Source: Dehalococcoidia bacterium (GTDB lineage: Bacteria; Chloroflexota; Dehalococcoidia; Plut-88900). Taken from it: DNA of 64,000 nt. The notes beneath the pieces were generated by a model. The model was not told where the DNA came from, did no database searches, and saw nothing but the letters and a program-made list of their open reading frames with translations. The stretch is from assembly GCA_965207225.1 (NCBI GenBank), contig CBDBLV010000005.1, positions 1,952,001-2,016,000 of the forward strand, given 5' to 3'. The position numbers were made by a program, and so were the translations under genes. Every line of letters starts with the position of its first letter. The first letter of the stretch is position 1. Shown piece after piece: positions 21,040-51,454 of this stretch.

Positions 21040-21068
21040 TCAGCCTGTGCTTCAAGCTGGAGGTGTAA
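21012..21068 (+). other. Detached 3' tail of LSR A gene (PPDLIKSRTFSLCFKLEV*)
   Basis: In frame with ...VLDFVQSG/S of LSR A when joined at CC; TAA at 21066-21068. Confidence 0.8.
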
Positions 21069-21081
21069 GGACGGGCTCAGG

Positions 21082-24091: not shown

Positions 24092-24598
24092 TCAGCTTGG
24101 GCTTGTCCTCGACGATTTTGTATTCGTATTTGTCATCGTCCGGCCCCAATTGGTCTCGACCCCCGGTTGCCAATTCTCTTGGCTCTCTTGCACTTGAACA
24201 TTCTCCCCGAGTTCCTCAGAGATGCGCTTCACCCCGGACTCGATCTCGCACGCCCAAATGACCCTCCACTTCCATCCAAGACTATCCAGAGCAGAGCGTG
24301 CCTGAGCATCCCTTTTCGCATTTCTTTCGATCTTCGTCGTCCAGTAATCCGTGTTGCTCTTGGGCATCCTTGATCTCTTGCATCCATGCCAGTGCCAGAA
24401 GCACCCATGGACAAACAACGCGACTCGATGGCGAGGGAAGACCAAGTCAGGACAGCCGGGGAGATCAGCACGGTGGAGTCGAAAGCGATGTCCCGCCCTA
24501 TGAAGAGCCTTTCTCACTTCCATCTCGGGTCTAGTGTCCCGTGACTTCACCTTGGCCATAATCGCGCTTCGCTCGCGGCTGTCTATCTGATCGGCCAA
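24092..24598 (-). CDS. vsr: Very short patch repair endonuclease
   Basis: RS.IM..VKS.DT.PE, LPG.PD, FVHGCFWH.H, W..KI.RN..RD, W.CE. Confidence 0.95.
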   Translation of the reverse strand: MADQIDSRERSAIMAKVKSRDTRPEMEVRKALHRAGHRFRLHRADLPGCPDLVFPRHRVALFVHGCFWHWHGCKRSRMPKSNTDYWTTKIERNAKRDAQARSALDSLGWKWRVIWACEIESGVKRISEELGENVQVQESQENWQPGVETNWGRTMTNTNTKSSRTSPS

Positions 24599-24610
24599 GA
24601 GTTAAGCCCC

Positions 24611-25567: not shown

Positions 25568-26934
25568 GGCGACACCGACGTCCGTCTGCGAGCGACGGCC
25601 TCAACAGTCTCTCGACTGGACAACCCGGCGCGGCTCCGAGACCCGTTATCCTTGGAGTGCTCATCAGCAGGTAAGTCCCGGCACAATCTCGCCAGATGGA
25701 CAAGTAGCCGATTAGAGAGCCAACGAACCACCGGGACCGCCACGCCGTCGCCAATTGCCCTATAGGCGTCGTTGTACTTTGACGGAAGCCAGAAGGAATC
25801 TGGCACTCCCATAAGGCGCGCAGCCTCCCTTGGTGACAGTAGCCGAGACCTAATGCGGCCGTTGTCCAACACAAGGACGATCTGACGGCTTGAGCCACCC
25901 TGTGGTGTTCTCAGGCATCCCGCGACGCCGTCGAACCTTGCTTCAGCTCTTTGAACTCCCTCCCGTATCCTCTTGTAAACGAAGCCTACCGATTGACCAT
26001 TCTCAATGGCACTTTCCGTCTTCTTCCGATTCACGTCTGTCATCATAGCCAACAGACGCTCCGTCTCATCAGGCTCATGCCATGCCACGCTTGTAGGAGT
26101 CTCTTCAACCATGTCCTCGACGGCAGGAATAGAGCAGGTGGGCTCCGGCAGATTCCACCAACGCCATGATTCTGTGAGCGCCTCCGGCAACTGCTCATAG
26201 GCAGACCTAACGGACTTGGGGAACCATGGAACAGTCTCGTCGGCCTCTTCATTCACCAATAGGGAACAATCAACGCGGGAGTCTATGGCGACTACGAATA
26301 CTCTTGGTCGGGACTGAGGAAGGAATTGGCGAGCGTCGATCACAAGAGGACCGAACTGCATGCCCAGCGTTGCCAGGGACTCACAGAGAATCGGAAAGTC
26401 GTCCCCGTAGAGCATCCCGACGACGTTTTCGATGACTATGAGGGGCGGTCGCTGCCCCCGGTCAAGTGAATCACGCATCAGCCTCCAGAACTCCCAATAG
26501 GTCCCACTGCGCTCTGCCTTCATGCCCCTTCTAGAGCCCGCTAGCGATAAGTCTTGGCAAGGAAAGGACGCCCAAGCCATGTCAGTGTCAACGGGTAGTG
26601 AGTCAGTGGCTACGCTTGCTACGTCGCCCAGCACAAACTCTCCAGCGCCGAATTCGGCCTCATATACTTCCTGCTTTCGAGCGTCAATGTCGTTCGCCCA
26701 TGTGCATGACCAAGAAGGCTCTAGGCCAAGTCGAACAAGTCCAGCTCCTGCAAAGAAGTCCACAAACGTCAGTGGCTCACTGAGCGAGCGGACTGCTGTG
26801 TCCGCCCGATCCTGGTCGGCAGGTATGCCGTTGACTTGATGGGTCGAGTCCATATCAGTACGCGGCCCGTTCATTCGCTGCTCACCGATCATCTTTATCT
26901 TTCCTTTGCTTTCGGTGACAACGCCAGGGGACAT
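25564..26934 (-). CDS. dcm: DNA (cytosine-5)-methyltransferase
   Basis: FFAGAG, SFPCQD, IENV, PQSRPRVF, GDGV motifs; start uncertain. Confidence 0.95.
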   Translation of the reverse strand: MSPGVVTESKGKIKMIGEQRMNGPRTDMDSTHQVNGIPADQDRADTAVRSLSEPLTFVDFFAGAGLVRLGLEPSWSCTWANDIDARKQEVYEAEFGAGEFVLGDVASVATDSLPVDTDMAWASFPCQDLSLAGSRRGMKAERSGTYWEFWRLMRDSLDRGQRPPLIVIENVVGMLYGDDFPILCESLATLGMQFGPLVIDARQFLPQSRPRVFVVAIDSRVDCSLLVNEEADETVPWFPKSVRSAYEQLPEALTESWRWWNLPEPTCSIPAVEDMVEETPTSVAWHEPDETERLLAMMTDVNRKKTESAIENGQSVGFVYKRIREGVQRAEARFDGVAGCLRTPQGGSSRQIVLVLDNGRIRSRLLSPREAARLMGVPDSFWLPSKYNDAYRAIGDGVAVPVVRWLSNRLLVHLARLCRDLPADEHSKDNGSRSRAGLSSRETVEAVARRRTSVSP

Positions 26935-26961
26935 TCGACTTCGAATGAATGTCCAGCCACG

Positions 26962-27162
26962 TCATAGCAACCTACGCTTCGCGCCGGGCCGAGGATCGTA
27001 GGTGTTTGAGAACACATCCAAGACCTCCCGACGTATGAGCCAAGTGTTGCGGAGCTTCTCAGCAGGCAAGTCGCCCTGCCGACACAGACGCTTGACGGTC
27101 TCTGGATGCACCTGAAGTCGGCGCGCAGCTTCAATGGCGGTAAGATAGTTTTCGAGGGTCAT
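26962..27162 (-). CDS. Small HTH (excisionase/MerR-type) regulator heading the methylase operon
   Basis: YLT..EAA..L.VHPETV.R....G.LPA.K....W.I. Confidence 0.85.
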   Translation of the reverse strand: MTLENYLTAIEAARRLQVHPETVKRLCRQGDLPAEKLRNTWLIRREVLDVFSNTYDPRPGAKRRLL

Positions 27163-27183
27163 TCAGTTACCGATCCATCAGGA

Positions 27184-27204
27184 TATTGTTGTGTCGCAAC
27201 AATA
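27184..27204. promoter_or_regulatory. Palindromic operator between divergent HTH and relaxase genes
   Basis: TATTGTTG-N5-CAACAATA perfect dyad. Confidence 0.55.
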
Positions 27205-27283
27205 CCCAAGTCGCTGTGGCGCGTCAATAGGCGCTGCCACGCGCCCGTTGCCCGCTGCCCTTGGCCTTCGTTACGCTCAACGC

Positions 27284-29020
27284 ATGTCTTTATCCGACCA
27301 CCATCTGCTCGACACTCTCAGCCGGATGCCGTTTGTCGAATCGACGGAGCTGGCGCTCATCCTAGGCGAGCCCCACGCCACCGTCCACCGCAGGCTGTCC
27401 GAGCTGCTGGCCGACGGCCTCGCGGGGAAGGCCACCCACGGCACCGTCCACCTGCCCTCGAGCGGGAGGTATTTCATCACCGCCAAGGGCATCGGCGAGA
27501 CCGCCGAGGTCCTGGGTTTCGACACGCCCTCGGAGTTCGTGCGGGCTTACCCCATGTCCAGGGAGTGGCTGACGCTGCTCCTGCGCAGGATGGACTCGGT
27601 GGTCGCCGTCTACCGCCTGGCCGCCACCATGTCTCCCGGCTACGACGGGCGCAAGTCCCGCGTGGAGTTCCACCGCAGGGGACGCTTCGACGCCACCATC
27701 ACCCTCCACGACGGGCGAGACTTCGGCATCGTGCGCCAGGGCCTGGCCCTGCGCAGGCGTTCCCTCCACGACCGGCTGCGTACCCTAGCCCACTACGACG
27801 CCGGCCGCCGCCCGGACATCGTGCTCATCCTGGTTCCTAGTGTCTGGGAGCGGCGGCGGACGGGGAGGTTCTGCGAGGGGGTGTACCTGACGGACTTCTT
27901 CATCGCCGTGGAGTCCCGGTGGGCACTGGAACGGCGGGACCGCCGGGTCTGGCAGGAGACCACGGGGCTGTCCGGGCATTCGTACCTGACGCTGGAGCGG
28001 GTGATCTCCCGGGGCACGCCGGGCAGAAGACGAAGGCCCCTCACGGCGTCGCCGGAGCGGAAGCGAGCTTCCCTGCCCGACCCTGAACGCATGGTGGGGG
28101 ATTCGCCCGCCTTCGGTATCAGCCCCGCCGAGAAGCGGACGCTGGACCTGATCACCGACCACCCCATGATCCCCCGGGAGCACCTGGCGACCTGGCTGGG
28201 CGTCTCCGAGGGAAGGGTCAGCCAGATGATACGCAGCCTCGTGAAGACCTGGGGCCTCATCGAACGTCACGGCAAACGGGGCGAGGTGCGCTACACCCTG
28301 TCCGACGAGGGCATTCGCTACGTCACCCACCGGGACCGGGCCGAGCTTCCCACCACGCGGGGCATCTGGAGCACGGAGCTCACCACGGACAAGGAGGGAC
28401 GGCTACGACACACAGGCCACCGCATCGAGACGTGGGCGAGGCAGACGAAGCACGCCGACGGCATCACCTGGTTCCTCTCGAAGATGGCAGCCGAGGCCCG
28501 TGCCGACCCCGACAGCGCGCTGGTGTGGGTGGTGCCCACCGCCAGGTCCGACCGGGCCTACAACTGGGGCCGCTCCGCCATCGCCCCCGACGCCGTGGGG
28601 CAGCTGGTCGCCGGGGGCCATCCCGTGCCCTTCTACCTTGAACACGAGCTCAGAGCCCGCCACCCCAGGGGAGTCATGGCCCGCCTGGACCCCTACGAAG
28701 ACTACTACTGGTCGAATGAGCACAAAGAGGACCTGCCGCCGTACCCCGTCACCCTGTTCGTCGTGGACACCGAGGAGGTCGAGGAGACCTACCTCATTAC
28801 CGCCGGCCGGATGCACCGGATGTCGCTGCCCGTCCTGGCGTCCTGCACGCCCGTGTTGTCCACCACTGGGGTACTGGGGGAGTCCTGGCGCCCCCTGTGG
28901 GCGCCGTCCTCCCCCCGGCTGAGGCTGTCCCATCTGAGTGATTACGTCTACGACCCGCTGTACCACCGGATGCGTCCGACTCCTCCTGTAGGGGCGTCCA
29001 ATAGGAGGGGACATAGATAG
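27284..29020 (+). CDS. Replication-relaxation (Replic_Relax/MOBC-like) protein, copy 2
   Basis: Highly similar to 1203-2939. Confidence 0.7.
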   Translation: MSLSDHHLLDTLSRMPFVESTELALILGEPHATVHRRLSELLADGLAGKATHGTVHLPSSGRYFITAKGIGETAEVLGFDTPSEFVRAYPMSREWLTLLLRRMDSVVAVYRLAATMSPGYDGRKSRVEFHRRGRFDATITLHDGRDFGIVRQGLALRRRSLHDRLRTLAHYDAGRRPDIVLILVPSVWERRRTGRFCEGVYLTDFFIAVESRWALERRDRRVWQETTGLSGHSYLTLERVISRGTPGRRRRPLTASPERKRASLPDPERMVGDSPAFGISPAEKRTLDLITDHPMIPREHLATWLGVSEGRVSQMIRSLVKTWGLIERHGKRGEVRYTLSDEGIRYVTHRDRAELPTTRGIWSTELTTDKEGRLRHTGHRIETWARQTKHADGITWFLSKMAAEARADPDSALVWVVPTARSDRAYNWGRSAIAPDAVGQLVAGGHPVPFYLEHELRARHPRGVMARLDPYEDYYWSNEHKEDLPPYPVTLFVVDTEEVEETYLITAGRMHRMSLPVLASCTPVLSTTGVLGESWRPLWAPSSPRLRLSHLSDYVYDPLYHRMRPTPPVGASNRRGHR

Positions 29021-29201
29021 CGTCGATGCAACGCCATCTGCCCTCCCTGCTGTCTGGGGGCCGCAAAACGGTACAAGTTGTACATCTGGCGGGCTCCTGT
29101 GTCAATGCTAAGTTAGATTTGACCCTTTTCCGCTAAGTTAGAACTGACCCACCTTGTCGTTAAGTCGCCTCCTTTCTGGCAAGCAAGAGTGCCTGTTGGA
29201 T

Positions 29202-30005
29202 TTAGACGTCGCCGGAGCTAGCGGCTTCAGGCGATGTCGATAGCAGTTGATGGGAGGCGAAGAGTCCGGCCTGCCTCTTGCCTTTAAGCCGGTAGCTCTC
29301 GCCTCGGATGTTGAGGACGTGGCTGTGGTGCAGCAGCCGGTCCAGGATGGCCGAGGCGATGACGGTATCGCCCAGAAGCTCACCCCACTCGGCGAAGCCC
29401 TTGTTGGAGGTGAGGATGATGCTGCCCCGCTCATAGCGAGCCGACACCAGGGTGAAGAAGGCGGTGGAGGCGTCCCGGTCGTAAGGCCAGATGCCGAACT
29501 CGTCCACGATGAGTAGCTTGGGCGACAGGTAGACCCGCATGCGCCGTTGGAGGTTGTTCTCCACCCTGGCCTTCCTCAGGTCCTCCATCAGGTCGTAGGC
29601 TCGGACGAAGTAGGCCCCCTGGCTCTTCTCGATGGCCTTGAGCGCTAGGGCCACCGCCAGATGGGTCTTGCCCACACCTGGCGGTCCCAGGAGCAGCAGG
29701 TTGGTGGCTTCAGCGACGAAGGACAGGCCGGCCAGTTCCCGCACCTGTCGCTCGTCGATGGAGGGCTGGAACGAGAAGTCGAACTGCTCCAAGGTCCGGT
29801 GGAAGGGGAGGTGAGCCAGCTTCGTCCTGGTGGACATGTACCGCTCCTTCCGGGCGGCCACTTCCACGCCGAGTAGCTCTGCCAGCATCTCGGGGTAGGT
29901 CAGTTTCTTGGTGGCCGCAGCGTCCAGGGAGTTGTCCAGGGCTTCGACGGCCTGCTTGAGGCCCAGCGTCTCCAGGTGCTGGCGAGCCTGTTCCAGCGCG
30001 ATCAT
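29202..30005 (-). CDS. istB: IS21 helper ATPase
   Basis: GPPGVGKTHLA, LLIVDEFG, RYE.GSIILTSN, AILDRLLHH, GESYR. Confidence 0.97.
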   Translation of the reverse strand: MIALEQARQHLETLGLKQAVEALDNSLDAAATKKLTYPEMLAELLGVEVAARKERYMSTRTKLAHLPFHRTLEQFDFSFQPSIDERQVRELAGLSFVAEATNLLLLGPPGVGKTHLAVALALKAIEKSQGAYFVRAYDLMEDLRKARVENNLQRRMRVYLSPKLLIVDEFGIWPYDRDASTAFFTLVSARYERGSIILTSNKGFAEWGELLGDTVIASAILDRLLHHSHVLNIRGESYRLKGKRQAGLFASHQLLSTSPEAASSGDV

Positions 30006-31237
30006 CGCCCACCTCCCACCGCTGCCAACTCGTACACCTCCAGGGAGCGGCGCTCCACTTGGCCCACAGGGATCTGCACCGCCACGGCTTCCTTACGAGG
30101 ACGATCATCGCCGCCGGGCAGTCCGTCCCACTGGCCCGGCAGTGTGAGGCGCTGACCGGTCCGCTGGGCTTGGGGATGCACCGCCAGCCGCACGTCGCCC
30201 GACCAGACCTCCACCGTACCGGCCCGCACACCCACCTGGACCGTCGAACCCGCCCAGCTCCAGGGCACGCCGTAGCGAGACCTCTCCCAGTGGACGTAGC
30301 CGTCCCTGGCCACCTTCCGCTCCTCCCGCATGTAGGGCGCAAGGCCCGAACGCGGCGGCAGGCTGCCCAGGTGGGCGAGCTCCTCAGCCAGCATCTCTCG
30401 GGGGACCCGGTGCGTCGTCCCATGGACTCGCCGATTGGCCACCGCATCGCACCACTCCAGGGCCTGGCGGTTCATGTCTGCGTCGTCGGTGAAGCGGACA
30501 CCGGGCCACAGGTTGCCCCGGACGTACTTCACGCCGCTCTCCACCTTGCCCTTCGTCTGCGCTCGGTAGGGTCGGCACAGACGGAGGTCGAAGCCCATTC
30601 GCAGTGAGAAGTCCAGCATCCGGCTGTTCCACTCCGGCCTGCCCTCCCTGTCACGCCCCAGGACCACCACCTTGGCGTTGTCGTACAGGCAGCGGCGGGG
30701 AACACCACCGAAGTACTCGAAGGCGTTCAGATGGCACCTGATGAAGGTCGCCACGTCGGCGCGCCGGACGAACTCCACGTAGATGGTCCGAGACCAGCTC
30801 AGCACCATCACGAAGGCCCAGACCCGGTGCTTGCGCCCGTCCTCTCCGACATAGGCGAAGCTGCCCCAGTCCACCTGTGCCTGCTCGCCTGGCGCCGTCT
30901 CGAACCGCACCGTCGCACGGGGCTGACGCGGCCGACGCCGAGGCCGCACGTAGTTGGTCAGCGTCGGATAGCTGCCGTCGTAGCCCAACTCCCGGATCTC
31001 CCGCAGCAGCACCACGCAGTTGTCCACTCCCGCCGACAGCCGACCATCTATGTGACCCTTGTATGGGTCCAGCTTCGACCCCTGCTTCTCTCGCCGCTTG
31101 GCCTTGGGCACCTCGTCGGAGCGCACGTACTTGCGCACGGTGTTCCGGGAAATCCCCAACTCCCTCGATATCCCTCGGATCGAGCTTCCATCGCCCTTCA
31201 ACTCGTATAACTCTCTCACTAACCCACCTCCTATCAT
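30002..31237 (-). CDS. istA: IS21 DDE transposase
   Basis: N-terminal HTH, RFET.PGEQAQVDWG, YDN.K, KGKVE, N.R.H.T. Confidence 0.97.
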   Translation of the reverse strand: MIGGGLVRELYELKGDGSSIRGISRELGISRNTVRKYVRSDEVPKAKRREKQGSKLDPYKGHIDGRLSAGVDNCVVLLREIRELGYDGSYPTLTNYVRPRRRPRQPRATVRFETAPGEQAQVDWGSFAYVGEDGRKHRVWAFVMVLSWSRTIYVEFVRRADVATFIRCHLNAFEYFGGVPRRCLYDNAKVVVLGRDREGRPEWNSRMLDFSLRMGFDLRLCRPYRAQTKGKVESGVKYVRGNLWPGVRFTDDADMNRQALEWCDAVANRRVHGTTHRVPREMLAEELAHLGSLPPRSGLAPYMREERKVARDGYVHWERSRYGVPWSWAGSTVQVGVRAGTVEVWSGDVRLAVHPQAQRTGQRLTLPGQWDGLPGGDDRPRKEAVAVQIPVGQVERRSLEVYELAAVGGGR

Positions 31238-31359
31238 TTGACTTGCTGCACCTCCTAATCGGTTTCCCGACGAAGATGCGTCCGCTATCGGGGTGGGTCA
31301 ATTCCAAATTAGCGCTACTGGGTCAGTTTAGAGTTAGCACTAACACCTGAAATACCCAA

Positions 31360-31770
31360 GACCGGTCATATTCCCCTAATTCAACTACAAAAGGGGCTGC
31401 AACGTCCTCGACCGGTCAACGGTAAAAAAAGCAAGTTGGGGAGAAGCTGTGATAAAGTTAGGGCGCTCTCCGGAGACGCCGGAATTGCACTTTTACCACC
31501 CTGACCGGTCAGCCGATCATGGGGGATGTAGGTACGGATGCGGGTCTGAAGCGTCTATGAGGAGCAAAACCGTCGCTTCGGCGGCGTCCGCGGCCCATGC
31601 TGGACCACCGGATATTGCAGGAATTGAGGTGGGGGTGCATGACGCGAAATAGGATGGGTAGGAGCGGACATTTCGGGCCACGCAGGTTTGTATTTGTGCA
31701 ACATTTCGGGGGTTTGGCCGAAAATGGTGACCGGTCGCTGTCAAGGACCGGTTCCACCGAAAATTGCAGA
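31360..31770 (+). promoter_or_regulatory. Conserved cis region of A2
   Basis: GACCGGTC at 31360, 31410, 31503, 31729; TTGAGGTGGGGGTGCATGACGCG at 31624-31646. Confidence 0.55.
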
Positions 31771-31797
31771 AGCGGCCCACCCCGATAGAAGGCGAAT

Positions 31798-32235
31798 ATG
31801 ACATCTCGGAAGCTGACGGAGAGATCGAGGGCCGGAGACGGCAAGCCCGACCAGAAGTGGGTCGTGGAGTACCTCGTACAGCGGGAGGGTCAGCGCAGGA
31901 CGGCGGCCCTCCTGGGGGTGAACCGGAAGACGGTGGCGCTGGCGCTGGGCCGTGAGCGGCTGACGGGGAGGATGGCCCTGGCCGTGCAGCGGTTCATGGC
32001 CGGCCTGGACGATCCCGACGGGGAACTGGCGACGCCCCTGGACAGGCTGGAGGCGAGGATGCGGCGTGTGATCAAGGCCGTGGATGATCTCAGGGAGCGC
32101 GTGGATGACCTGACGGAGCGCGTGGAGGCCCTAGAGGCGGTGCAGCAGGAGCCCGATACCGAGGGCCGGGGGCTGGGCCTGTTCGACTGGTGGCGGCGGC
32201 GCAGGCCGCAGGGTGAGAACGAGAGACATGGCTGA
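31798..32235 (+). CDS. HTH + coiled-coil protein, copy 2
   Basis: Translation identical to 3470-3907. Confidence 0.65.
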   Translation: MTSRKLTERSRAGDGKPDQKWVVEYLVQREGQRRTAALLGVNRKTVALALGRERLTGRMALAVQRFMAGLDDPDGELATPLDRLEARMRRVIKAVDDLRERVDDLTERVEALEAVQQEPDTEGRGLGLFDWWRRRRPQGENERHG

Positions 32236-32662
32236 GCGGGTGCGCTGGATTACGAAGGCGGAGGCGGCGCGGGAGATGGAGGTCTCCATTTCGACGCTGG
32301 ACCGGATGATACGGCGTGGAGAGGTCGAGGTGCGCAGGGAGGGCCGGAGGGTCTACGTGGAGATGGAGGGGCCGGAGCGGGTGAGCGACGAGGAGCTGCT
32401 GCGTCGGGCTATTGGGCGGGAGGACAGGCTTCAACGGAGGCTGGTGAAGCTGGACCAACGGGCGCAGGCGTTGGAGCGGGAGCGGGACGAGGCCGTGTAC
32501 GCCGCATCCGCCGACCGGCAGGCGCTAGAGGAGGTGGAGGAGGCGTATCAGAAGGAGCGGGCCGCCCGGAGAAGGATGAGGCGGTTGGCCGTCAGGCTTG
32601 GGTTGGCCGTGGTCGTGTTGCTAGCCGTCGTGGGCCTGCTCGTGTGGCGGCTGGTGGCATAG
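32228..32662 (+). CDS. Excisionase-like HTH/coiled-coil/TM protein, copy 2
   Basis: Translation identical to 3900-4334. Confidence 0.7.
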   Translation: MAERVRWITKAEAAREMEVSISTLDRMIRRGEVEVRREGRRVYVEMEGPERVSDEELLRRAIGREDRLQRRLVKLDQRAQALERERDEAVYAASADRQALEEVEEAYQKERAARRRMRRLAVRLGLAVVVLLAVVGLLVWRLVA

Positions 32663-32672
32663 GGTATAGCGC

Positions 32673-35351
32673 ATGGCCGGAGATGACATCGGACACCAGA
32701 TACGCATCGCCGCCGAGAGCACTAGGCTCTACCGCCTATTCGCTGTTGGACCGACGCGTGTGTCGCTGACCGACGAAACGCTCACCTTCGAGGGACGCCT
32801 GGGTGGAGCATCCGACGAGGTGCCCGTCGGAGCCATCGACTCAATCACGGTCTCACCATCGTTGTTGTGGCATCGGCTGACCATACAGTTGGGAGATGGG
32901 ACCGAGCGGTCAGTTGGAGGACTTGACGAGAGCAGAGCTGCACGGGTCCGGGACGCGGTGTTGGCGAGCACCGTCGAGGTCGCCAAGGCTTTGAGCCCTG
33001 AATTGAAGTGGCTCGATGAGCAGGTTCGACAACACTTCGCCGCCGACCGCTACGCCCGATACAGCGACTGCCGGAAGCTTCACGAGTCTCTAGCGCCGGT
33101 TCTACGGCAATGCAAGGCACTCACCCGTGGACGCCTGAACCAAGAAGCGTCAGAGACGGCGGAGCGGCTTTCGCCCCTAGAATCGGTTGCGGGGTTCGAG
33201 GCGGCAAGAAGGCGTGCGAACAGCCTGTTCATTTCCAACGCCAAGCCCTCCGTACAGCAAGCCGCATCCGAGACGCTGGGTAACCCTCTCACGGATGAAC
33301 AGGCCGAAGCCGTCGCCACCGACGAGGACGCGACCCTTGTGCTGGCGGGCGCGGGAACGGGCAAGACCGCGGTCATCGTCGGCAAGGTCGCCCATGTCGT
33401 TCACAATTTGGGTGTTCGCCCGAACGAGGTGCTGGTCCTGGCATTCAACCGCAAGGCGGCCGATGAGATACGGGGACGGCTCAAGGGCGACCTCTCCGCA
33501 GCGCACGTCCACACCTTCCACAGCTTCGGTCGCCGCGTCATAGCCGAGTCCGAGTCCGCTCCCACCATATCGAAGCTGGCCGAGGACGAACTGGCGCTGA
33601 GGCGCGCAGTTGACAACATCATCGGCGAGCTACTCAACGACCTGGAGCAGTCGAGGGCTGTGATCGACTTCATCGTCTACCACCACGCGCCCTACAGATC
33701 GGCCTTCGAGTTCGACACCCTTGACCAGTACGAGGAGTACGTCCGCGAAGTCGATTTGCGGACCCTGAGCGGGGATCTGGTCAAGAGTTTCGAGGAACTG
33801 TCCATCGCGAACTACCTGACGGAACACGGCGTCGAGTTCCGGTACGAAGACCTGTACGAGACAGCGACGGCGACGAACCAACACAGGCAGTACCAGCCGG
33901 ATTTCTTCCTGCCCGGCCACGACATCTACATCGAGCACTTCGCACTCAACGAACATGGACGCCCTCCCCCCGGCTGGAGAGGGTACGTGGAGGGCGTCGA
34001 GTGGAAGAGGAACATCCACCGTCAACACGGCTCGACGCTGGTGGAGACCTACAGCTGGCAACACCGGCGGGGCATCCTGCTTGAGACGCTGCGCAAGCGC
34101 CTCGAAGAGGCAGGGGTTAGCTTCGAGCAGGTACCTCGCCAAACCCTGGTGCGGCAACTCGGCCAGGAGCAGACGTCGTCGCTGGCGGGGCTGCTGGCGA
34201 CCTTCCTGAATCACGCCAAGAGCGGCGGCCTCTCGTCCGAGACGCTTCGCAGCCGAGCCCGTGAGAGAGGAGACCGCCGGCGCAACGGTAGCTTCCTTGC
34301 CGTTTTCGAGCAGGTGCGCGACCGCTACCAGAAGCTGCTCTCGGACCAAGGGGAGCTGGACTTCCACGACCTCATCAACGTCGCCGCAGGGCATATCCGT
34401 GAGGGCCGATGGAAGTCTCAGTATCGTTACGTTCTGGTGGATGAGTTCCAGGACATATCCGCAGGTAGGATGGCGCTCATACACGCCCTCCGGGGCCAGG
34501 ACGTAGCCTACTTCCTGGTGGGAGACGACTGGCAGTCGATCTACAGGTTCGCGGGGAGCGACGTCGGTCTCCTGCGGGATTGCGGCGACCTGCTCGGCCA
34601 CGTGGAGGAGCGGACGCTGAGCCGGACCTTCCGGTTCGCCGACGGCATACTCGGCCCCTCGACCGAGTTTGTGAAGCGGAACCCGGAGCAGACCCAGAGA
34701 CCCTTGCTGTCCGCCAGCGGAGCGGAGGACGAGGGCGTCACCATCGTCGCCGACGCCAGTCCCGCTGGCGGCGTTGCTCGGGCGTTGCAGGACATCGAGG
34801 CAAGGGCGCAGGGTGAGCCTCGCAGCGTCCTTGCGCTGGGGCGCTACCGGCAGGGCCGCGAGGTGGTCCAGTCGATTCGGCGGAGCAGGTCGCTACGAGT
34901 GGAGTTCAGCACGGTTCATGGAGCGAAGGGCCGCGAGGCCGACTACGTGATCCTGCTCGACCTCAACGACGGTCGTTATGGGTTCCCTTCGAAGGTGGAG
35001 GACGATCCGCTGCTGGAGCTCGTGCTGCCCCCGGTCTCGGGGGGAGCTTATCCATTTGCGGAGGAGAGGCGTCTCTTCTACGTGGCGATGACCCGGGCGC
35101 GGAACGGCGCATACCTGGTGACCGACCCTGTGCGGCCATCCCAGTTTGTGACGGAACTGTTAAGGGAATCCGACGACCTGCGGCAGATCGGCGAACTCGC
35201 GACGAAGTGTCCGCGTTGCGGCAGGGGCGTGCTCCAGGTGATCAATGGCAGGCGCGGCCGCTTCTGGGGCTGCACTGGGTACCGGTCCACGCCGCCATGC
35301 CGATACACCAAGGACATTGAGGGAGAAACCGCCCATAGAGGGCGGGAATAG
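32673..35351 (+). CDS. UvrD/helicase IV-like helicase, copy 2
   Basis: Same as 4345-7023 apart from a cluster of substitutions around residues 515-650. Confidence 0.9.
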   Translation: MAGDDIGHQIRIAAESTRLYRLFAVGPTRVSLTDETLTFEGRLGGASDEVPVGAIDSITVSPSLLWHRLTIQLGDGTERSVGGLDESRAARVRDAVLASTVEVAKALSPELKWLDEQVRQHFAADRYARYSDCRKLHESLAPVLRQCKALTRGRLNQEASETAERLSPLESVAGFEAARRRANSLFISNAKPSVQQAASETLGNPLTDEQAEAVATDEDATLVLAGAGTGKTAVIVGKVAHVVHNLGVRPNEVLVLAFNRKAADEIRGRLKGDLSAAHVHTFHSFGRRVIAESESAPTISKLAEDELALRRAVDNIIGELLNDLEQSRAVIDFIVYHHAPYRSAFEFDTLDQYEEYVREVDLRTLSGDLVKSFEELSIANYLTEHGVEFRYEDLYETATATNQHRQYQPDFFLPGHDIYIEHFALNEHGRPPPGWRGYVEGVEWKRNIHRQHGSTLVETYSWQHRRGILLETLRKRLEEAGVSFEQVPRQTLVRQLGQEQTSSLAGLLATFLNHAKSGGLSSETLRSRARERGDRRRNGSFLAVFEQVRDRYQKLLSDQGELDFHDLINVAAGHIREGRWKSQYRYVLVDEFQDISAGRMALIHALRGQDVAYFLVGDDWQSIYRFAGSDVGLLRDCGDLLGHVEERTLSRTFRFADGILGPSTEFVKRNPEQTQRPLLSASGAEDEGVTIVADASPAGGVARALQDIEARAQGEPRSVLALGRYRQGREVVQSIRRSRSLRVEFSTVHGAKGREADYVILLDLNDGRYGFPSKVEDDPLLELVLPPVSGGAYPFAEERRLFYVAMTRARNGAYLVTDPVRPSQFVTELLRESDDLRQIGELATKCPRCGRGVLQVINGRRGRFWGCTGYRSTPPCRYTKDIEGETAHRGRE

Positions 35352-35533
35352 CCGGGAAGAGGAACCCGCCTTCTTCCGACACTTTGGACTCTCCTTTAGC
35401 GTCCTGCCCGCACGATTTGCAGGCCCTCTAGCGATGCCGTAGTGTCGGATGTCCCTTGCGCCCTAGGTATCCTATGGCCTACAATTGGGGAGGTGGGCAA
35501 ACTCCACCAAACCGATGACCACGGGGGGTTGAG

Positions 35534-36373
35534 ATGATAAGAAGGCGTTTGAGCCTATTGGCCCTATTCGCGATAGTCACCGCGATGCTGGCTGTAGCCT
35601 GCACTGACGATTCGTCCGACTTCGAGGAAGCGGTGATGCAAGAGTTGACCGTCATTAGCGCGACGACGGACCAGCTATCCCAATCGTCGGAACAGGCGCA
35701 GTCTGCGTCTGCTGATGGGGGCATCCTGGTGACCGGCGAGGGACACCTCAGCGTGGAGCCGGACTTGGCGATGGTGTACATCGGCATCGAGGCTCAGTCA
35801 GAGACGGTCTCTCAGGCCAGGACCGATGCTGCTGAGGCAATGTCGAGGGTTGCGGCAGCCGTCAGGGCGCGGGGCCTGTCTGACGCGGACATTCAGACCG
35901 TATCGTTCGATATCAGGCCGGAGTACCGGTACGAGGAGATCGAACAGGATGGCAGCTATGTGGCGAGGCGGAAGTTCGTCGGCTACGTCGTCAGCAACTT
36001 TGCCTCAATCAAGGTGCGCGACCTGGACGCCGTCGGACCCGTCATCGACGATGTGGCGGAGGCCGGAGGCGATCTCGCCAGAATCGATGGGGTCAGTTTC
36101 ACGGTGGAGGACCCGAACCCCTTCATGGAGGAACTCAGAAGGGAGGCTTTTGAGGAGGCGAAGGCCAAGGCCGAGCAGCTTGCGGACTTGGCTGGCGTCA
36201 GACTGGGGCAGGCCCAGTCCATTAGCGAGTCAGTCGCATCGGACGGACTGACTGGCACCACTTTTGGATTGCGCGAATTCACATTCGTAGACTCTGAAAG
36301 CTTCACCCCCATCAGCGGCGGGGAGACGGAGCTTCGTCTGACGGTCATAGCCCAGTTTGACATAGAGCCGTAG
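35534..36373 (+). CDS. SIMPL domain (DUF541) lipoprotein, divergent allele
   Basis: Lipobox LAVAC; homologous to 7203-8051 with many substitutions. Confidence 0.85.
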   Translation: MIRRRLSLLALFAIVTAMLAVACTDDSSDFEEAVMQELTVISATTDQLSQSSEQAQSASADGGILVTGEGHLSVEPDLAMVYIGIEAQSETVSQARTDAAEAMSRVAAAVRARGLSDADIQTVSFDIRPEYRYEEIEQDGSYVARRKFVGYVVSNFASIKVRDLDAVGPVIDDVAEAGGDLARIDGVSFTVEDPNPFMEELRREAFEEAKAKAEQLADLAGVRLGQAQSISESVASDGLTGTTFGLREFTFVDSESFTPISGGETELRLTVIAQFDIEP

Positions 36374-36712
36374 ATGGACGTGGCAGACGCAAGGACGGCG
36401 GCAATGGCAAGGACGACGACCAAGCAATGGGATCCGGCGAAGCATCTGGAAACCGCAGAGGAGATGGCAGCCTACCTGAGCGCCGCCTTCGAAGAGGACG
36501 ACGTGCGGTTGATCCTGGCAACGCTGGGGGACATCGCCCGCGTCCGGAGGATGGCGGTGGTGGCGCAGGAGACGGGGCTGGGCAGGGAGAGCCTCTACAA
36601 GTCGCTGTCCGCCGACGGCAACCCGGAGTTCGTCACCATCTTGAAGGTGATGCGCGCCGTGGGACTCAGACTTCAGGTCGCAGTGGTGCCTGGAGCGAAC
36701 GACGCCGCCTGA
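36374..36712 (+). CDS. HI1420-like antidote protein, copy 2
   Basis: Same as 8052-8390 except the N-terminus. Confidence 0.85.
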   Translation: MDVADARTAAMARTTTKQWDPAKHLETAEEMAAYLSAAFEEDDVRLILATLGDIARVRRMAVVAQETGLGRESLYKSLSADGNPEFVTILKVMRAVGLRLQVAVVPGANDAA

Positions 36713-36771
36713 GAGCGTCGCAGTGACGGACGACACGACTGAGGGAACAGACGATTCCAGAGGAGGACGAC

Positions 36772-39700
36772 ATGAAGAAGCAGCACCTACAGCCCCTGAC
36801 GCCGGCGGCCCTCTACGCCAGGGTGTCCAGCGACCGCCAAGACGTGGATCTGTCCGTGGCCGCACAGCTTAGGGCGCTCAAAGAGTACGCCAAGGCCAAC
36901 GGCTACTCCGTGGCCAGGGAGTACGTGGACGAGGCCGAGAGCGGCCGGGTCGCCGACCGGCCCCAGTTCCGGGAGATGATCGCAGAAGGCTCCAAGCCCC
37001 AGGCTCCTTTTGAGGTGATTTTGGTCTGGAAGTTTTCAAGGTTCACCCGCAAGCGGGAGCACGCCGTGGCCTTCAAGGCTCAGCTGCGGCGCAAGGGCAT
37101 CCGCGTGGTGTCCATCACCGAGCAGGCCGAGGACAACGCCACCGGCAGGCTGCTTGAGGGCATCATCGAGAGCGTGGACGAATACTACAGCGAAAATTTG
37201 GCGCAGGAGGTCGTCCGGGGGATGCGGGAGGCGGCTTCGAGAGGCTTCTTCCTGGGCTCCAAGGCCCCCTTCGGCTACCGGAAGATCAAGGTGCAGGACG
37301 GGGCGAAGGAGCGCCCCTCGCTGGAGGTTGACCCTGCCACGGCTCCTGTAGTGAAGGAGATATTCGAGAAGTCTCTGAGCGGCCACGGTCTGAAGGAGCT
37401 GTGCAAGGAACTGAACGACCGGGGCGTCACCAACCGGGGGAAGCGCTGGTACAAGGGCGGTCTCCACTACGTGCTGCGGAACGAGGCGTACACCGGAACA
37501 GCCGTGTGGGGGCTCAAAGGCAAGGGAGAGAAGGCCCAGGACCCGGTGAGGGTTGAGGGAGCGTGGCCCGCGCTGATTTCACGGGAGCTGTTCGAGGAGG
37601 TCCAGCAGGCGATGAGCGAGCGCGCCCCGAAGGTGCAGAGGCCCGCCAGGGTGGGAAGCCCGTATCTGTTGAGCGGGCTGCTGAAGTGTGGGGTGTGCGG
37701 CAGGCTCTACTCGGCCCAGGGAGCCAAGAGCGGCCAGTTCGCCTACTACATCTGCGGGACGCTGTTCCGGGAGGGAGCGGGGACGTGCAGCGCCCGCTAC
37801 CTGAACGCTTCCAGGGTGGAGGAGTTCGTGGTGGAGAAGATCAGGGAGCGCATCCTCACCGAGGAGACCATCGTGGAGCTGGTGCAGCTTGTGGCGGAGG
37901 AGATCGACGCGATGGCCGGTGAGCTTGCAGGGAGGCTGGAGTCTGTGGAGGCGGAGCTGTCCGACGTGCAGAGGCGTCTGGGGAAGCTCTACGAAGCCAT
38001 CGAGACGAGCGACCTGACGCTGGAGGTGCTGTCGCCCCGCATCATGTCCCTGCGGCACCGTGAGGAGCAGTTGGAGGCTGCCAGAGAGGACGCCGAGACC
38101 CAGCTTGAGCAGCGGAGAGTCGATCTGCCCGACACCGAGGAGATCGCGCGGTACGTGGCGGACTTCCGGGAGTTCCTGAAGGAGGGAACGATACCGGAGC
38201 GCAAGGCCCTCATCCGCAACTTCGTTGAGGGCATCGAGGTGGTGGGAGACGAGGCGACGCTGACGTACACGGTGCCCATGCCCAGGGACGGGGTGACCAA
38301 GGAGTCGGCCTCGGTTCTTGATTTCGTCCAGTCCGGCCCAGTGAGTGAGACTGGACGCTGGATGAGAGTTGAATTAGTCGGAGAAGTAATCGCCGGGACC
38401 TTTGAGAGGGGAATCAGCCAATATCCGAACATAGGAGATACGGTTCATCTGGCAGTTGAGGAACACTTGCACCGAATCTACGATATCCGAGGCCAAGGAT
38501 ACGTTGTAATTGGCACTCTCGCCAGTGCCGAAAGCATTTCTGCGAAAGTTGCGCTTGATGAGCTGGTAACACGGCATTCCGCTATTCTCGGCTCAACTGG
38601 TTCCGGCAAGTCCACGACTGTAGCCAGCCTACTACGAGCAATTACGGCATTCGGTCCAGACAGCAACGCATATCCGAACGCCCGGATTCTAATGCTCGAT
38701 ATACATGGGGAATATTCGACTCCTCTCGCCGATGTATCTAAGGTATTCAGCGTTGAACCCCAGCACGGGGAGGAAAAGCTGTTCGTTCCCTACTGGGCAC
38801 TCGACACTGAGGACTTGCTAGACTTTCTGACCGGGAGGCTGGAAGGGAACAGAGAAACGGCATTTACCGACAAGATATTTGAATTGAAATCTGCATCGCA
38901 CTCCGCCCAATTGTTTCCTGGTGTTCAATCCGGCTCAATAACTGTTGACACGCCTTTACCATTCAGTTTGAAGCGACTGTGGCATGAACTTATTGACTTT
39001 GAGATCGCAACATTTGAGGGGAAAGATCGCGACGAGTCTACTCGGCAAGATCCTGGAGACCCTAATACGCTCACACCCCCGAGATATAAACCTCATGCCA
39101 TGGGTGCAACAGGTCCATTCCTAAACCAGCAAGCGTTCGGCATACAACGTCCTCTGAACCTCTTACGTTCCCGACTGCTTGATCGTCGCTATGACTTCTT
39201 GTTGCGCCCCGGGCCGTGGGAACCCGACCTTGATGGTACGGCTGAAAGGGATCTTGATTCACTACTGTCTGACTGGCTTGGAGGTGACAAGCCCATTACT
39301 ATTCTCGATCTGTCTGCAGTGCCTAGCAGCGTGCTTGAGCGTCTGATTGGATCAATTCTGAAGATCATTTATGAGGCTCTGTTTTGGAGTAGAGAGAAGA
39401 CAGAAGGTGGCATTCAGCGTCCTTTGCTTATTGTAATGGAGGAGGCTCATAGGTATCTCTCAGATATATCAGAAGGTACAGCGTCAGATATGGTTCAAAG
39501 GATCGTAAAGGAGGGAAGAAAGTACGGTGTAGGTGCAATGATAGTTAGCCAGCGACCCTCTGAAGTGAACGAGACCATACTTTCGCAATGTGGCACCTTT
39601 TTTGCGCTGCGCCTCTCAAATCCATCTGATCGCGATAGGGTCCGGGGGACACTGCCAGACGGTCTTGTCGGCCTCTTAGATGTGCTACCGATTCTCCGTA

Positions 39701-39945
39701 CGGGAGAAGCTATCGTCACTGGCGAAGCGGCTAAACTGCCCATGCGCTGTCGTGTAAGCCTTCCGGCTAAAGAGAACAGGCCACGTAGCGAAGACCCGGA
39801 AGTGAGTCGTAGTTGGAACCTACCGAGACGTAAAGAGGGTTACGAAAGGGTCGTGGCTTCATGGCGTGCTCAGAGCCCTCTAGCAGTTGCTAATCTCCTA
39901 AACATCAGCCGAACTCCGGTCGAAGATGAGTCTGATCAGGAATGA
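36772..39945 (+). CDS. LSR type A body (36772-38337) read through in frame into 5'-truncated HerA/DUF87 ATPase
   Basis: First 522 aa match LSR A; remaining 535 aa carry HerA motifs; abrupt GC drop at ~38340. Confidence 0.9.
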   Translation: MKKQHLQPLTPAALYARVSSDRQDVDLSVAAQLRALKEYAKANGYSVAREYVDEAESGRVADRPQFREMIAEGSKPQAPFEVILVWKFSRFTRKREHAVAFKAQLRRKGIRVVSITEQAEDNATGRLLEGIIESVDEYYSENLAQEVVRGMREAASRGFFLGSKAPFGYRKIKVQDGAKERPSLEVDPATAPVVKEIFEKSLSGHGLKELCKELNDRGVTNRGKRWYKGGLHYVLRNEAYTGTAVWGLKGKGEKAQDPVRVEGAWPALISRELFEEVQQAMSERAPKVQRPARVGSPYLLSGLLKCGVCGRLYSAQGAKSGQFAYYICGTLFREGAGTCSARYLNASRVEEFVVEKIRERILTEETIVELVQLVAEEIDAMAGELAGRLESVEAELSDVQRRLGKLYEAIETSDLTLEVLSPRIMSLRHREEQLEAAREDAETQLEQRRVDLPDTEEIARYVADFREFLKEGTIPERKALIRNFVEGIEVVGDEATLTYTVPMPRDGVTKESASVLDFVQSGPVSETGRWMRVELVGEVIAGTFERGISQYPNIGDTVHLAVEEHLHRIYDIRGQGYVVIGTLASAESISAKVALDELVTRHSAILGSTGSGKSTTVASLLRAITAFGPDSNAYPNARILMLDIHGEYSTPLADVSKVFSVEPQHGEEKLFVPYWALDTEDLLDFLTGRLEGNRETAFTDKIFELKSASHSAQLFPGVQSGSITVDTPLPFSLKRLWHELIDFEIATFEGKDRDESTRQDPGDPNTLTPPRYKPHAMGATGPFLNQQAFGIQRPLNLLRSRLLDRRYDFLLRPGPWEPDLDGTAERDLDSLLSDWLGGDKPITILDLSAVPSSVLERLIGSILKIIYEALFWSREKTEGGIQRPLLIVMEEAHRYLSDISEGTASDMVQRIVKEGRKYGVGAMIVSQRPSEVNETILSQCGTFFALRLSNPSDRDRVRGTLPDGLVGLLDVLPILRTGEAIVTGEAAKLPMRCRVSLPAKENRPRSEDPEVSRSWNLPRRKEGYERVVASWRAQSPLAVANLLNISRTPVEDESDQE
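38312..38365. other. att junction J3 (A body arm | CC | herA target arm)
   Basis: cggttcttgatttcgtccagtccggc CC agtgagtg...; homology to A1 stops at the core. Confidence 0.85.
38338..39945 (+). pseudogene. herA: 3' part of interrupted HerA-family ATPase gene
   Basis: Partial HAS-barrel (VELVGE...FERGISQYP.IGD.V), H.AILGSTGSGKS, DIHGEY, EEAH, KEGRKYG, SQRPS. Confidence 0.85.
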
Positions 39946-40173: not shown

Positions 40174-43072
40174 ATGCAATTGACTGACATGGCGAATGTC
40201 ATCAGCCGCAAGAAACTCATAGAGGTCGCTCTCCCGTTGGACGCCATCAACGCGGCGTCGGCGCGAGAAAAGTCCATCCGACATGGGCACCCTAGCACCT
40301 TGCACCTGTGGTGGGCGCGGCGACCTCTGGCGGCAGCCCGGGCAGTGCTGTTCGCCCAGATGATTGATGACCCATCCTCACGCCCTGAGTTGTTTCCCAC
40401 CGAGGACTCCCAAGCCAAGGAGCGGAAACGGCTGTTCGGTATTATCGAGGAGTTGGTGAAATGGGAGAACACTACCAACGAGACGGTCCTGGAAGCGGCG
40501 CGTGAGGAGATTCGCAAGAAGTTGGCGGCGGACCTGCGAAGACAACATAGGCAACCCTAGGGCAGTGGAATTGTTCGACCCCGTAAAACTTCCTGCTTTT
40601 CACGATCCATTCGCCGGAGGGGGCGCGATACCCCTCGAGGCCCAGCGCCTAGGCATGGAAGCCTACGCCAGCGACCTGAACCCGGTTGCGGTGCTCATCA
40701 ACAAGGCTATGATCGAGATTCCGTCCAAGTTTTCAGGTAAACCGCCAGTAAACCCGGATGCCCGGAAGGGCTGGGGCTCCGTAGGTGCGCAATGGAAGGG
40801 CGCGGCGGGCCTGGCTGAGGACGTTCGCTACTACGGCAAGTGGATGCGCGACGAGGCGGAGAAGCGCATTAGCTACCTGTATCCCAAGATTGAGATCACG
40901 GCGGAGATGGCGCAGGAGCACCCTGACCTAAAGTCATACGTGGGCCGCAAGCTCACTGTCATCGCGTGGCTCTGGGCGCGGACTGTCAAGAGCCCAAACC
41001 CGGCCTTCGCCAACGTGGATGTACCCTTAGCCTCCACCTTCGTGCTTTCGACCAAGAAGGGCAAGGAAGCCTACGTGAAGCCGATGATTGAGGACGGCGG
41101 CTACCGATTCACGGTCAAAGCGGGCAAGCCGCAGGAAAGGGCCATGAACGGCACCAAGCTGGCTAGGGGCGCAAACTTCCAATGCTTGATGTCTAAGACA
41201 CCAATAGCAGCCGACTACATCAAAGCTGAAGGCAGGGCTGGGCGCATGGGCGCTAAGCTGATGGCAATCGTCGCCGAGGGTGACCGCAGACGGGTTTACT
41301 TGGCACCCACACCAGAGCATGAATCAATCATTCAGAGTGCGGAGCCCACGTGGATGCCCGATGTCGAAATCTCTCCAGACAGACGTTCAATGTGCACGCC
41401 GCTCTATGGGCATACACACTTTAAACACCTCTTTACTGACCGTCAGTTGGTGGTCCTCACTACCTTCTCCGACTTGGTGGCGGAAGCACGGGAGTGCGTC
41501 CAACGCGATGCCGTAGCGGCGGGTATGCTGGGTGAGGACAGGTCCCTGCAGGACGGGGGGGAGGGGGCGAGAGCGTACGCCGAGGCTGTGGGGGTGTATT
41601 TGGGATTTCTCGTTGACCAATTAACAAATCACTCGTCGACGATTTGCGGTTGGCATGTCAATAACACACAGTTGCGTAATACTTTCGCAAGACAGGCAAT
41701 CCCTATGACATGGGACTATGCCGAAAGTAATCCACTTTGTAATTCTACAGGTAGCTTTAACAACTTGTGTGAGCGTCAAATCAAGGGATTCACAACTCTA
41801 GGAAACGGCGCATGCGGTACAGCTTCTCAGTTAGATGCAGGTCAGAATGAGATGTCTGTGGGGAAGGTCGTTTCCACAGATCCACCCTACTACGACAACA
41901 TCGGTTACGCCGACCTCTCTGACTTCTTCTACGTCTGGTTACGACGCTCAGTCAGGCCAACATTCCCCGACCTTTTCGCCACGCTAGCCGTACCGAAAGT
42001 GGAGGAACTGGTGGCCATCCCATACAGGCATGGCAGCAAGGAACGGGCAGAAGCATTCTTCTTGGATGGCATGACCCTAGCGATGGAGCGCTTGGCTGAC
42101 CAGTCCCATCACGCGTTTCCCGTGACTGTTTACTACGCCTTCAAACAGTCGGAGAGCCGAGGCGATGCCGGGGTTGCCAGTACTGGCTGGGAGATTTTTC
42201 TCGGAGCGATGATCCATGCCGGCTTCGCCGTCACAGGCACGTGGCCAATGCGAACAGAGCTTGGGAATCGCATGATCGGCATCGACTCCAATGCCTTGGC
42301 CTCCAGCATCGTCATCGTTTGCCGTCCACGCCCAGTCGATGCGCCTGTTGCCACTCGTCGGGAGTTCGTTGACGCACTGAAGTCCGAGTTGCCGGAAGCA
42401 CTGCGTCAGATGCAGCAAGGCAACATCGCCCCTGTGGATTTGGCCCAGGCCGCCATCGGGCCGGGCATGGCAGTCTTCTCCCGCTACGCCCACGTCCTGA
42501 ACGCTAGCGGCGATGCGCTTGTCGTGCGCGAGGCCCTTTCCCTCATCAACCAAACTCTTGACGAAGTGCTCGCTGAGCAGGAGGCCGACTTCGACGCCGA
42601 CACCCGGTGGGCGCTGGCCTGGTTCGAGCAGTCGGGGTTCGATGGTGGCGATTACGGCGTGGCTGAGACGTTGTCCACGGCAAAGAACACCAGCGTCGCG
42701 GGCATGATGGAGGCCGGGATACTACATTCGGGCGGGGGCAAAGTCCGCCTGCTCCGGCCTCACGAGTTGCCTGAAGACTGGGTTCCGGATAGCGACCGGA
42801 TCATCGTATGGGAGGCCGTACACCATTTGGTCCGCGTGCATGACAAGGAAGGCGAGGACGCAGCCGCCTCGCTTATGAGCAAACTTGGCCCAGAAGCCGA
42901 GGCGGCTCGCGAATTGGCCTACCGCCTCTATCGCATCTGCGACCAGAAGAACCGGTCTCAAGAGGCCATTGGCTACAATGCGCTCGTGCAGAGTTGGCCG
43001 GAGGTCGCGCGTCTTGCCCATCAAGTTGTCCGCCCCACGCAGGGGAGAATGGGGTTGCCCGATGACCGCTGA
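40174..43072 (+). pseudogene. DUF1156 adenine DNA methyltransferase, split by a +1 frameshift near 40519
   Basis: [24 protein letters not shown] in frame 1; DPFAGGG and TDPPYYDN in frame 2; removing one A restores EIRKSWRR. Confidence 0.85.
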
Positions 43073-43800: not shown

Positions 43801-47202
<3,402 letters not shown>

Positions 47203-51400: not shown

Positions 51401-51454
51401 CAGTCCAGCCTGTCCAGGCACTTGGTGGGCCTATTTTGACGGTAGACAGAACCG
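51401..51454 (-). other. att junction J4 (B-type tail arm | CC | target arm)
   Basis: Minus strand cggttctgtctaccgtcaaaataggc CC accaagtg...; shares TTGACGGTAGACAGAACCG with J1. Confidence 0.8.

Follow-up and report, generated by a model that had tools for sequence, protein, structure and literature searches.

How an integrase gene and a defence ATPase gene come to share one uninterrupted reading frame is the question raised by a stretch of 64,000 nucleotides (nt) from the genome of a Dehalococcoidia bacterium (assembly GCA_965207225.1), which corresponds to positions 1,952,001 to 2,016,000 of contig CBDBLV010000005.1 (C5:1952001-2016000) and is referred to here as the window. One open reading frame (ORF) at 36772-39945 on its plus strand encodes 1057 amino acids (aa), of which codons 1-523 belong to LSR-A, a large serine recombinase (LSR), and the remainder are codons 77-610 of herA, joined in frame. 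The present state of the locus is probably a 53-kb inversion, from which herA could be restored only by re-inversion and not by excision; the chimera would be an accidental by-product of this event and the defence locus would be inactivated.

An integrase and HerA in one reading frame

The initial annotation described an in-frame integrase-HerA ORF of 1057 aa, and this description is borne out by the ORF itself, by the domains of both proteins and by a drop in GC content from approximately 0.64 to approximately 0.50 at position 38300. The N-terminal part presents the domain order of large serine recombinases (catalytic, recombinase, zinc ribbon), with three Pfam domains that each score above cut-off: PF00239 Resolvase (residues 12-158), PF07508 Recombinase (188-284) and PF13408 Zn_ribbon_recom (299-358). 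These are followed by the HerA domains DUF87/HerA (578-864) and HerA_C (879-983). The best PADLOC model for the second part, the HerA model PDLC04105, aligns residues 525-1035 with profile positions 80-573 of 576, leaving approximately 79 N-terminal positions absent. In a self-comparison of the window, LSR homology ends at 38340. The HerA portion begins with the GTG at 38341, which corresponds to Val77 of a 610-aa form, so that 76 codons are absent; it comprises 534 codons plus the stop and not 535 aa as previously counted. Full-length relatives of 610 aa share approximately 80-83% identity with this portion and are spread across many phyla, and the RecA-like core with its Walker motifs is intact. 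Since the frame beyond the junction is the true herA frame, a long open continuation is to be expected, and the sole element of chance in the chimera is the one-in-three match of phase. The coordinates of the junction and of its neighbours are collected in Table 1.

Table 1. Features of the integrase-herA locus and of related attachment sites. Positions without a contig label are window positions.
Feature	Position	Strand	Evidence or remark
LSR-A part of the chimera, codons 1-523, complete, without a stop of its own	36772..38340	+	Pfam; 13 genomic copies, 83-100% identity, common end base
P arm ("a" arm) of the attachment site, within the final LSR-A codons	38313..38337	+	Arm scan; 21/25 palindrome match
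Putative CC crossover core, first two bases of Pro codon 523	38338..38339	+	Junction alignments
herA codons 77-610 and stop: last third of the N-terminal beta-barrel, RecA-like core, helix bundle, start of the arm	38341..39945	+	Homologue alignment
KTSC gene, 70 aa	39955..40167	+	Residues 629-696 of 8wiv_A, E 1.4e-15
HmaB methyltransferase, two overlapping frames	40174..43072	+	PADLOC HmaB profile positions 2-117 and 114-958 on two ORFs
HmaC ATPase with N-terminal HEPN_Swt1 domain	43801..47202	+	Pfam, PADLOC
Core of the distal junction of the inverted element B'	51427..51428	-	B' spans 51429 past the window end to C5:2032344
Element E2, A-type, approximately 17.3 kb core to core	21012..38339	+	Arms at C5:1973018 and 1990313; Pfam, PADLOC
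IS21-family insertion (IstA-like rve transposase and IstB) within E2, not in E1	29097..31348	-	E1/E2 alignment gap; Pfam
B-type element between E1 and E2	10018..21011	-	Window self-comparison, arm scan
tRNA genes followed by an LSR-B arm	C1:177682, C1:245981, C2:75260, C5:1036504, C5:1911928		tRNA scan

A phmmer search with the chimera against 1.84 billion representative sequences returned 73,170 hits at E <= 0.001. The top 150 of them include no LSR-HerA fusion: all are 684 aa or shorter, and the best-matching stretch is in each case either wholly LSR or wholly HerA. Conserved fusions in unrelated genomes, which would speak against an interrupted gene, are thus not found among these matches, and the chimera appears as a one-off. 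In the literature consulted, neither an LSR-HerA chimera nor a defence operon split by a natural LSR inversion was found to be reported, which is not proof of absence.

The herA 5' fragment and the probable inversion

If herA was interrupted, its first 76 codons should be found elsewhere. The initial annotation placed them to the left of the window, at the other end of the element array; the left end of this array is, instead, formed by a tRNA-Met gene (C5:1911928-1912002). A profile search of the genome with PDLC04105 missed the fragment, which was detected by tblastn using the N-termini of five homologues (C5:2043551-2043300, minus strand, 75% identity, E 5e-36). The 76 codons proper are encoded on the minus strand at C5:2043539-2043312, at a distance of 53 kb from the junction on its right-hand side. 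They end in ...ATCGGT-CCA, directly followed by the A-type left arm ACCAGACTTGACAAAATCAAGAACC of an element designated E3, and the junction reads ...ATCGGT-CC-ACCAGACTTGAC.... Past codon 76, the frame continues for 17 residues, PDLTKSRTFQLRFRLEV, before a stop is reached; this is the tail that LSR-A would have on a circular element (attP form). Together, the 76 and 534 residues add up to 610 and align with no gaps over residues 1-610 of the homologues P0003, P0045 and P0081 and residues 14-623 of P0002. Because both reciprocal products survive and join gaplessly, herA was cut by a conservative exchange at the attachment (att) core, and its interruption by a serine-recombinase element at a CC core, as proposed in the initial annotation, is supported by the junction alignments and by the rejoined HerA. 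A deletion instead of recombination was considered and is ruled out by the existence of the reciprocal product and by the exact fit of the two halves, in which nothing is gained or lost. The partner site was Pro codon 76 (CCA) of herA, hit in the same phase, with the consequence that the integrase ORF runs on through herA codons 77-610.

The order of the surrounding elements was obtained from a map of attachment arms covering C5:1.90-2.08 Mb, read together with a tRNA scan. On the plus strand, a tRNA-Met gene is followed by B0, a C-type element, E1 (A-type), B, E2 (A-type) and then the herA 3' part, KTSC, HmaB, HmaC and housekeeping-like genes. Next, in reverse orientation, come B', E3 (A-type) and finally the herA 5' fragment, SIR2 and HmaA. 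To the left of the distal core of B' lies a housekeeping-like flank (glyoxalase, oxidoreductase). When the segment C5:1990340-2043312 (52,973 bp) is computationally reversed, three features fall into place: herA becomes gapless within a colinear HmaA-SIR2-HerA-KTSC-HmaB-HmaC operon; all seven elements adopt one orientation (tRNA-Met, B0, C, E1, B, E2, E3, B', flank); and the distal arm of B' comes to lie against a sequence beginning CC-ACCAAG, like a tRNA 3' end.

Elements that interrupt host genes at a precise core and depend on large serine recombinases are well known, such as skin and SPbeta in Bacillus, the comK prophage of Listeria and the fdxN element of Anabaena, and tandem accretion at one site is exemplified by the SCC arrays of staphylococci. 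While these gene-interrupting elements excise and restore the gene, the two herA halves are here inverted relative to each other and the integrase reads into its target. Excision of the array, which had been expected to restore herA, therefore cannot rebuild the gene.

Two routes with an equal number of events could have led to the inversion. In route (a), LSR-A would have recombined the tandem E2/E3 junction, as the equivalent of attP, with the herA site lying in inverted orientation on the same chromosome. In route (b), an A-type element would first have inserted into herA, after which the segment would have been flipped by homologous recombination between A-type copies, the one in the array lying in inverted orientation. 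The similarity of E2 and E3 is confined to three blocks of 1.3-1.8 kb with 86-89% identity; their longest exact match measures 80 bp, identity stays at or below 95% in every 150-nt window, and this divergence favours route (a). Route (b), in turn, is favoured by the genome-wide survey of the 13 A-type right ends: none is followed by an A-type left arm (a'), there is no other A/A junction, and the conserved LSR-B arm follows in seven and a diverged LSR-B arm in an eighth. Route (a) is slightly favoured, and the data do not decide between the two.

Sequencing data were consulted as Logan contigs. Those of runs X1 and X3 begin at 38312 and extend across the junction without a single difference, and the X2 contig begins at 38338. 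No intact herA allele was seen in the contig rows shown for these three runs, in a data type from which rare alleles are dropped. In run X5, from another sample, a contig of 2481 nt is approximately 98% identical to herA and aligned from 38334 onwards; its 2079 nt upstream are unlike LSR, their letters being unread, which hints at an intact herA allele in a relative.

Besides the lack of a second A/A junction, which bears on the site-specific route, several points weigh against the inversion. Between the herA arms and the attP arms, only 6/25 and 7/25 positions agree, no more than expected by chance, and the herA site is for this reason a secondary site at best. The long-range order derives from a five-contig assembly with 8.3% contamination, whereas the Logan contigs confirm the junction of the a arm with the herA 3' part only and neither the attached element nor the long-range order; X1-X3 moreover represent one sample, perhaps the source of the assembly itself. 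Finally, the frameshifts in SIR2 and HmaB described below may be real decay or sequencing errors. These limits leave room for a simpler arrangement, in which one element or array sits between directly oriented herA halves, excision restores herA, and the apparent inversion is an assembly swap of the right parts of E2 and E3. All junction-level data would fit such an insertion equally well, and a swap at a homologous block would yield a consistent genome with the usual alternating A/B pattern. It is nevertheless considered unlikely, since E2 and E3 are too diverged for a typical repeat mis-join and both herA halves are located on the same 2.08-Mb contig.

The flank itself deserves a separate remark. 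The glyoxalase region in its last 830 nt (window 50600-51430) has 88% matches in four congeners (L102-L105) and an 88% paralogue in its own genome (C5:1851502-1852333). In three of the four congeners, the match adjoins a tRNA gene, and these tRNAs differ (Ala-GGC, Val-TAC and Ala-TGC); the 830 nt may themselves be the end of a mobile island. Owing to the unclear orthology, the differing tRNAs and the paralogue, the congener tRNA flank was not used as proof of the ancestral order.

The LSR-A elements and their attachment sites

LSR-A is present in 13 copies in the genome, all of which end at the same base, and more than 15 related integrase genes accompany them. In 12 of the 13 copies, the frame is open through codon 523 with no stop inside the element, the stop being found only in flanking DNA; the remaining copy, whose extraction was out of register, is unread, so that this count covers 12. 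The tail contributed by the right-hand flank amounts to 3-31 residues in 11 copies (31 in E1) and to 534 residues in the chimera. The final 25 bases of the element (a arm) agree at 21 of 25 positions with the A-type left arm (a') when the latter is reverse-complemented, forming a palindrome around CCCA, and the CC is common to all junctions. LSR-A thus possesses a palindromic att site with a central asymmetric dinucleotide. The patch of identity common to attP and attB is CCA (38338-38340), and the symmetry of the site suggests that CC is the crossover dinucleotide and where cleavage would occur.

These features are consistent with LSR-A being the integrase of a family of integrative elements of 11-18 kb. 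The P arm would supply the final 25 bases of integrase-coding DNA that are retained in the element, and the CC would fall in Pro codon 523; because the crossover lies within this codon, the element is left without an integrase stop codon. After recombination, the integrase ORF would extend into whatever DNA is located on its right.

A precedent for such an integrase is found in Dehalococcoides. In the excerpted text of McMurdie et al. 2011 (PMC3146451), the DsiB islands inserted at ssrA carry a large serine recombinase of approximately 540 aa at the island edge, whose 3' end overlaps the att site; its stop codon lies outside the island, sometimes in a neighbouring island, and the islands are arranged in tandem behind a tRNA-like gene. 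Its authors raised the question of whether a complete enzyme is encoded by the circular form alone, and a comparison with CcrB is drawn in the same text. The stop-less integrase is therefore a trait already known from DsiB that is confirmed here for LSR-A. As judged by gene layout and by these excerpts, the LSR-A elements resemble the DsiB islands in the overlap of the integrase ORF with the att site, in the external stop (12 of 13 copies) and in the tandem array from tRNA-Met to E2 behind a tRNA gene. They differ in their targets, which are ordinary tRNA genes (B-type) or the arms of neighbouring elements (A-type) instead of ssrA, and in their gene module, with SIMPL, a UvrD-type helicase, HTH_17 and Replic_Relax (Pfam) in place of DsiA, RecF-like, ParB and Mom. 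Unlike the described islands, one copy has struck within a protein-coding gene for defence, in matching phase, and that gene's halves ended up inverted.

The second integrase family, LSR-B, is convergent to LSR-A, approximately 70% identical to it and equipped with similar arms. Five tRNA genes (Ile, Ala-TGC, Lys-CTT, Val-GAC and Met; Table 1) have its arm directly behind their CCA end, and of two further tRNA genes (C5:130428 and C5:589542) one precedes a C-type arm and the other a degraded one. With five LSR-B cases, one C-type and one degraded, this integrase group uses many different tRNA genes ending in CCACCA. ARAGORN detected no tRNA within the window. The LSR-B gene of the B element (11601 to 9667, minus strand) runs antisense across the E1 junction and overlaps the convergent LSR-A gene (8450-10114, plus strand) by 448 nt (window 9667-10114), with the effect that, at the E1/B junction, the tail of each integrase comes from the back strand of the other.

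A module of helicase, SIMPL and LSR genes occurs twice in the window (3018-10018 in E1 and 31349-38340 in E2), and the two copies are 95% identical. Exact stretches of 2500 and 1764 bp are embedded in DNA of 92-95% identity, which suggests recent gene conversion or duplication between the copies. The cargo of E2 includes a leucine-rich-repeat protein, a type II restriction-modification pair, a Replic_Relax/helix-turn-helix (HTH) protein, the IS21 insertion, small HTH genes, a UvrD-type helicase, SIMPL and LSR-A. The leucine-rich-repeat protein of 831 aa lies at the left end (window 21082-23577) with tandem DNA repeats at 21173-21563, and the restriction-modification pair (window 24611-26934) consists of a DUF4928/REase_II enzyme and a C5 cytosine methylase. 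The first gene of E3 (15134-17257 of locus L017, minus strand) begins immediately behind the stop codon that closes the herA 5' remnant and encodes 707 aa with fn3, GmrSD_C nuclease and Excalibur domains.

The SIR2-HerA and Hma genes

The expectation that herA has a SIR2 or nuclease partner is confirmed by a SIR2 gene that adjoins the herA 5' fragment directly upstream on the same strand. It matches positions 2-188 and 190-391 of PADLOC model PDLC04094 on two frames, and the frame changes at a run of five T where homologues imply six, equivalent to a 1-nt deletion (18170-18260 of locus L017, or C5:2044170-2044260, minus strand). An intact HmaA of 1180 aa is encoded upstream of this fragment and SIR2. 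On the other side, KTSC equals residues 629-696 of the Paenibacillus HerA and hence represents the detached end of the HerA arm domain; in some relatives, it is fused to HerA (P0043, P0114, P0118 and P0120). The two HmaB ORFs (40174-40560 and 40502-43072) overlap in different frames, with an apparent frameshift at approximately 40500-40560, whereas the HmaB homologue in locus L027 is in one frame according to the locus coordinates. In HmaC, the Swt1-like HEPN domain (window 43801-44170) precedes a DUF499 ATPase. HmaA, HmaB and HmaC match their PADLOC models nearly end to end; they do not form a single Hma operon at present, with hmaA located 53 kb away on the other strand and hmaB in two frames.

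Among 80 related loci, SIR2 lies upstream of herA in 79, KTSC downstream in 79, and both are found in 78; the exceptions are L026, which is cut by a contig end, and L041, which contains a degraded gene. The order HmaA-SIR2-HerA-KTSC-HmaB-HmaC on one strand recurs in two of the 80 loci, in L027 and partly in L093, and the cassette was found in none of eight other genomes of the genus. Locus L041 (Longimicrobiales metagenome-assembled genome, 5383-7489) was examined as a second case and rejected, as its herA is in two ORFs with neither an upstream SIR2 nor an LSR, which reflects independent decay.

Hma has been described as a candidate three-gene operon comprising the helicase HmaA, the methylase HmaB and the ATPase HmaC, according to the excerpted text of Payne et al. 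2021 (PMC8565338). In comparison to that description, SIR2-HerA-KTSC is here placed between hmaA and hmaB, hmaB is frameshifted, and the inversion separates hmaA from hmaB and hmaC. The closest structural reference for the nested cassette is the SIR2-HerA system of Paenibacillus sp. 453MF (PDB 8WIV/8WLD; PMC11472057), with a homologous HerA and SIR2 immediately upstream; intact homologues of the present HerA align with residues 5-603 of 8wiv_A at E 8e-178. As far as the excerpted account extends, the present locus differs from the Paenibacillus system in having KTSC as a gene of its own, in the split of herA behind codon 76, in the apparent frameshift of SIR2 and in the nesting of the cassette in an Hma operon.

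The reference structure allows the effect of the break on HerA to be predicted. In the excerpts of the same study (PMC11472057), residues 1-132 of the Paenibacillus HerA form a beta-barrel that is packed onto the adjacent subunit, helix alpha-1 of SIR2 is clamped between two such barrels, and an F39A/Y60A/I100G/Q110A mutant neither binds SIR2 nor defends against phage. In the alignment, the break falls behind residue 81 of this 132-residue barrel. The positions of F39 and Y60 fall in the stretch absent from the chimera, which lacks HerA residues 1-76 and carries 523 foreign residues instead; a full-length HerA with its SIR2-docking barrel is thus missing. As the lost part of the barrel would hold the hexamer and dock SIR2, SIR2-HerA is presumably disabled in this genome, and the chimera would, judging from its sequence, be a non-adaptive by-product. 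In RNA runs, only a fraction of 0.04-0.08 of the words was present.

That the fusion was instead selected as a protein tethering the HerA motor to a recombinase is extremely improbable. Its 1057 open codons and the intact RecA-like core and Walker motifs would be compatible with such a role, but no protein among the best 150 of the 73,170 hits spans both halves, short tails of unrelated sequence are found in at least 11 of the other 12 LSR-A copies, the fusion point coincides exactly with the att core, and two-thirds of the beta-barrel that provides the hexamer contacts is lost.

The initial annotation further proposed a reversible defence switch. Since the halves are inverted, such a switch could not operate by excision; it would require LSR-A and a directionality factor to re-invert the 53 kb (attL x attR, in inverted orientation) and thereby toggle SIR2-HerA-KTSC and the Hma operon. 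In its favour, both reciprocal junctions are precise, with both att arms intact; an open LSR-A gene is in addition kept in E2 and in E3, and small HTH_17 ORFs in E2 (31798-32662) could be excisionase-like. It is weakened by the 1-nt deletion in SIR2 and the HmaB frameshift, which, if real, would make re-inversion alone insufficient for function. Moreover, no intact allele appears in the rows shown for X1-X3, although such contigs lose rare variants, no directionality factor was identified, and none of the eight congeners carries the cassette for comparison. Toggling of this kind is accordingly rated as very unlikely. Slightly less probable still is the full version, in which a serine integrase naturally and reversibly inverts the 53-kb segment as a switch, each flip rebuilding or breaking two nested defence systems and exchanging the integrase tail between the 17-residue native form and the 534-residue HerA form. 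Were it true, this exchange of tails could feed back on the direction of recombination.

If the 53-kb inversion is accepted as the probable origin of the locus, it would represent a well-resolved natural case of LSR action on a secondary site inside a protein-coding gene, with both reciprocal products kept and an inversion as the outcome. For annotation, an "integrase-HerA fusion protein" of this kind should be read as an artefact that arises where an integrase gene lacks its own stop. For two related integrase families, attP arms, a core and several natural target junctions are now defined, which is useful for mining serine integrases as genome-engineering tools. For the organism, the locus illustrates that, where a genome is rich in mobile elements, nested anti-phage systems can be knocked out by them.

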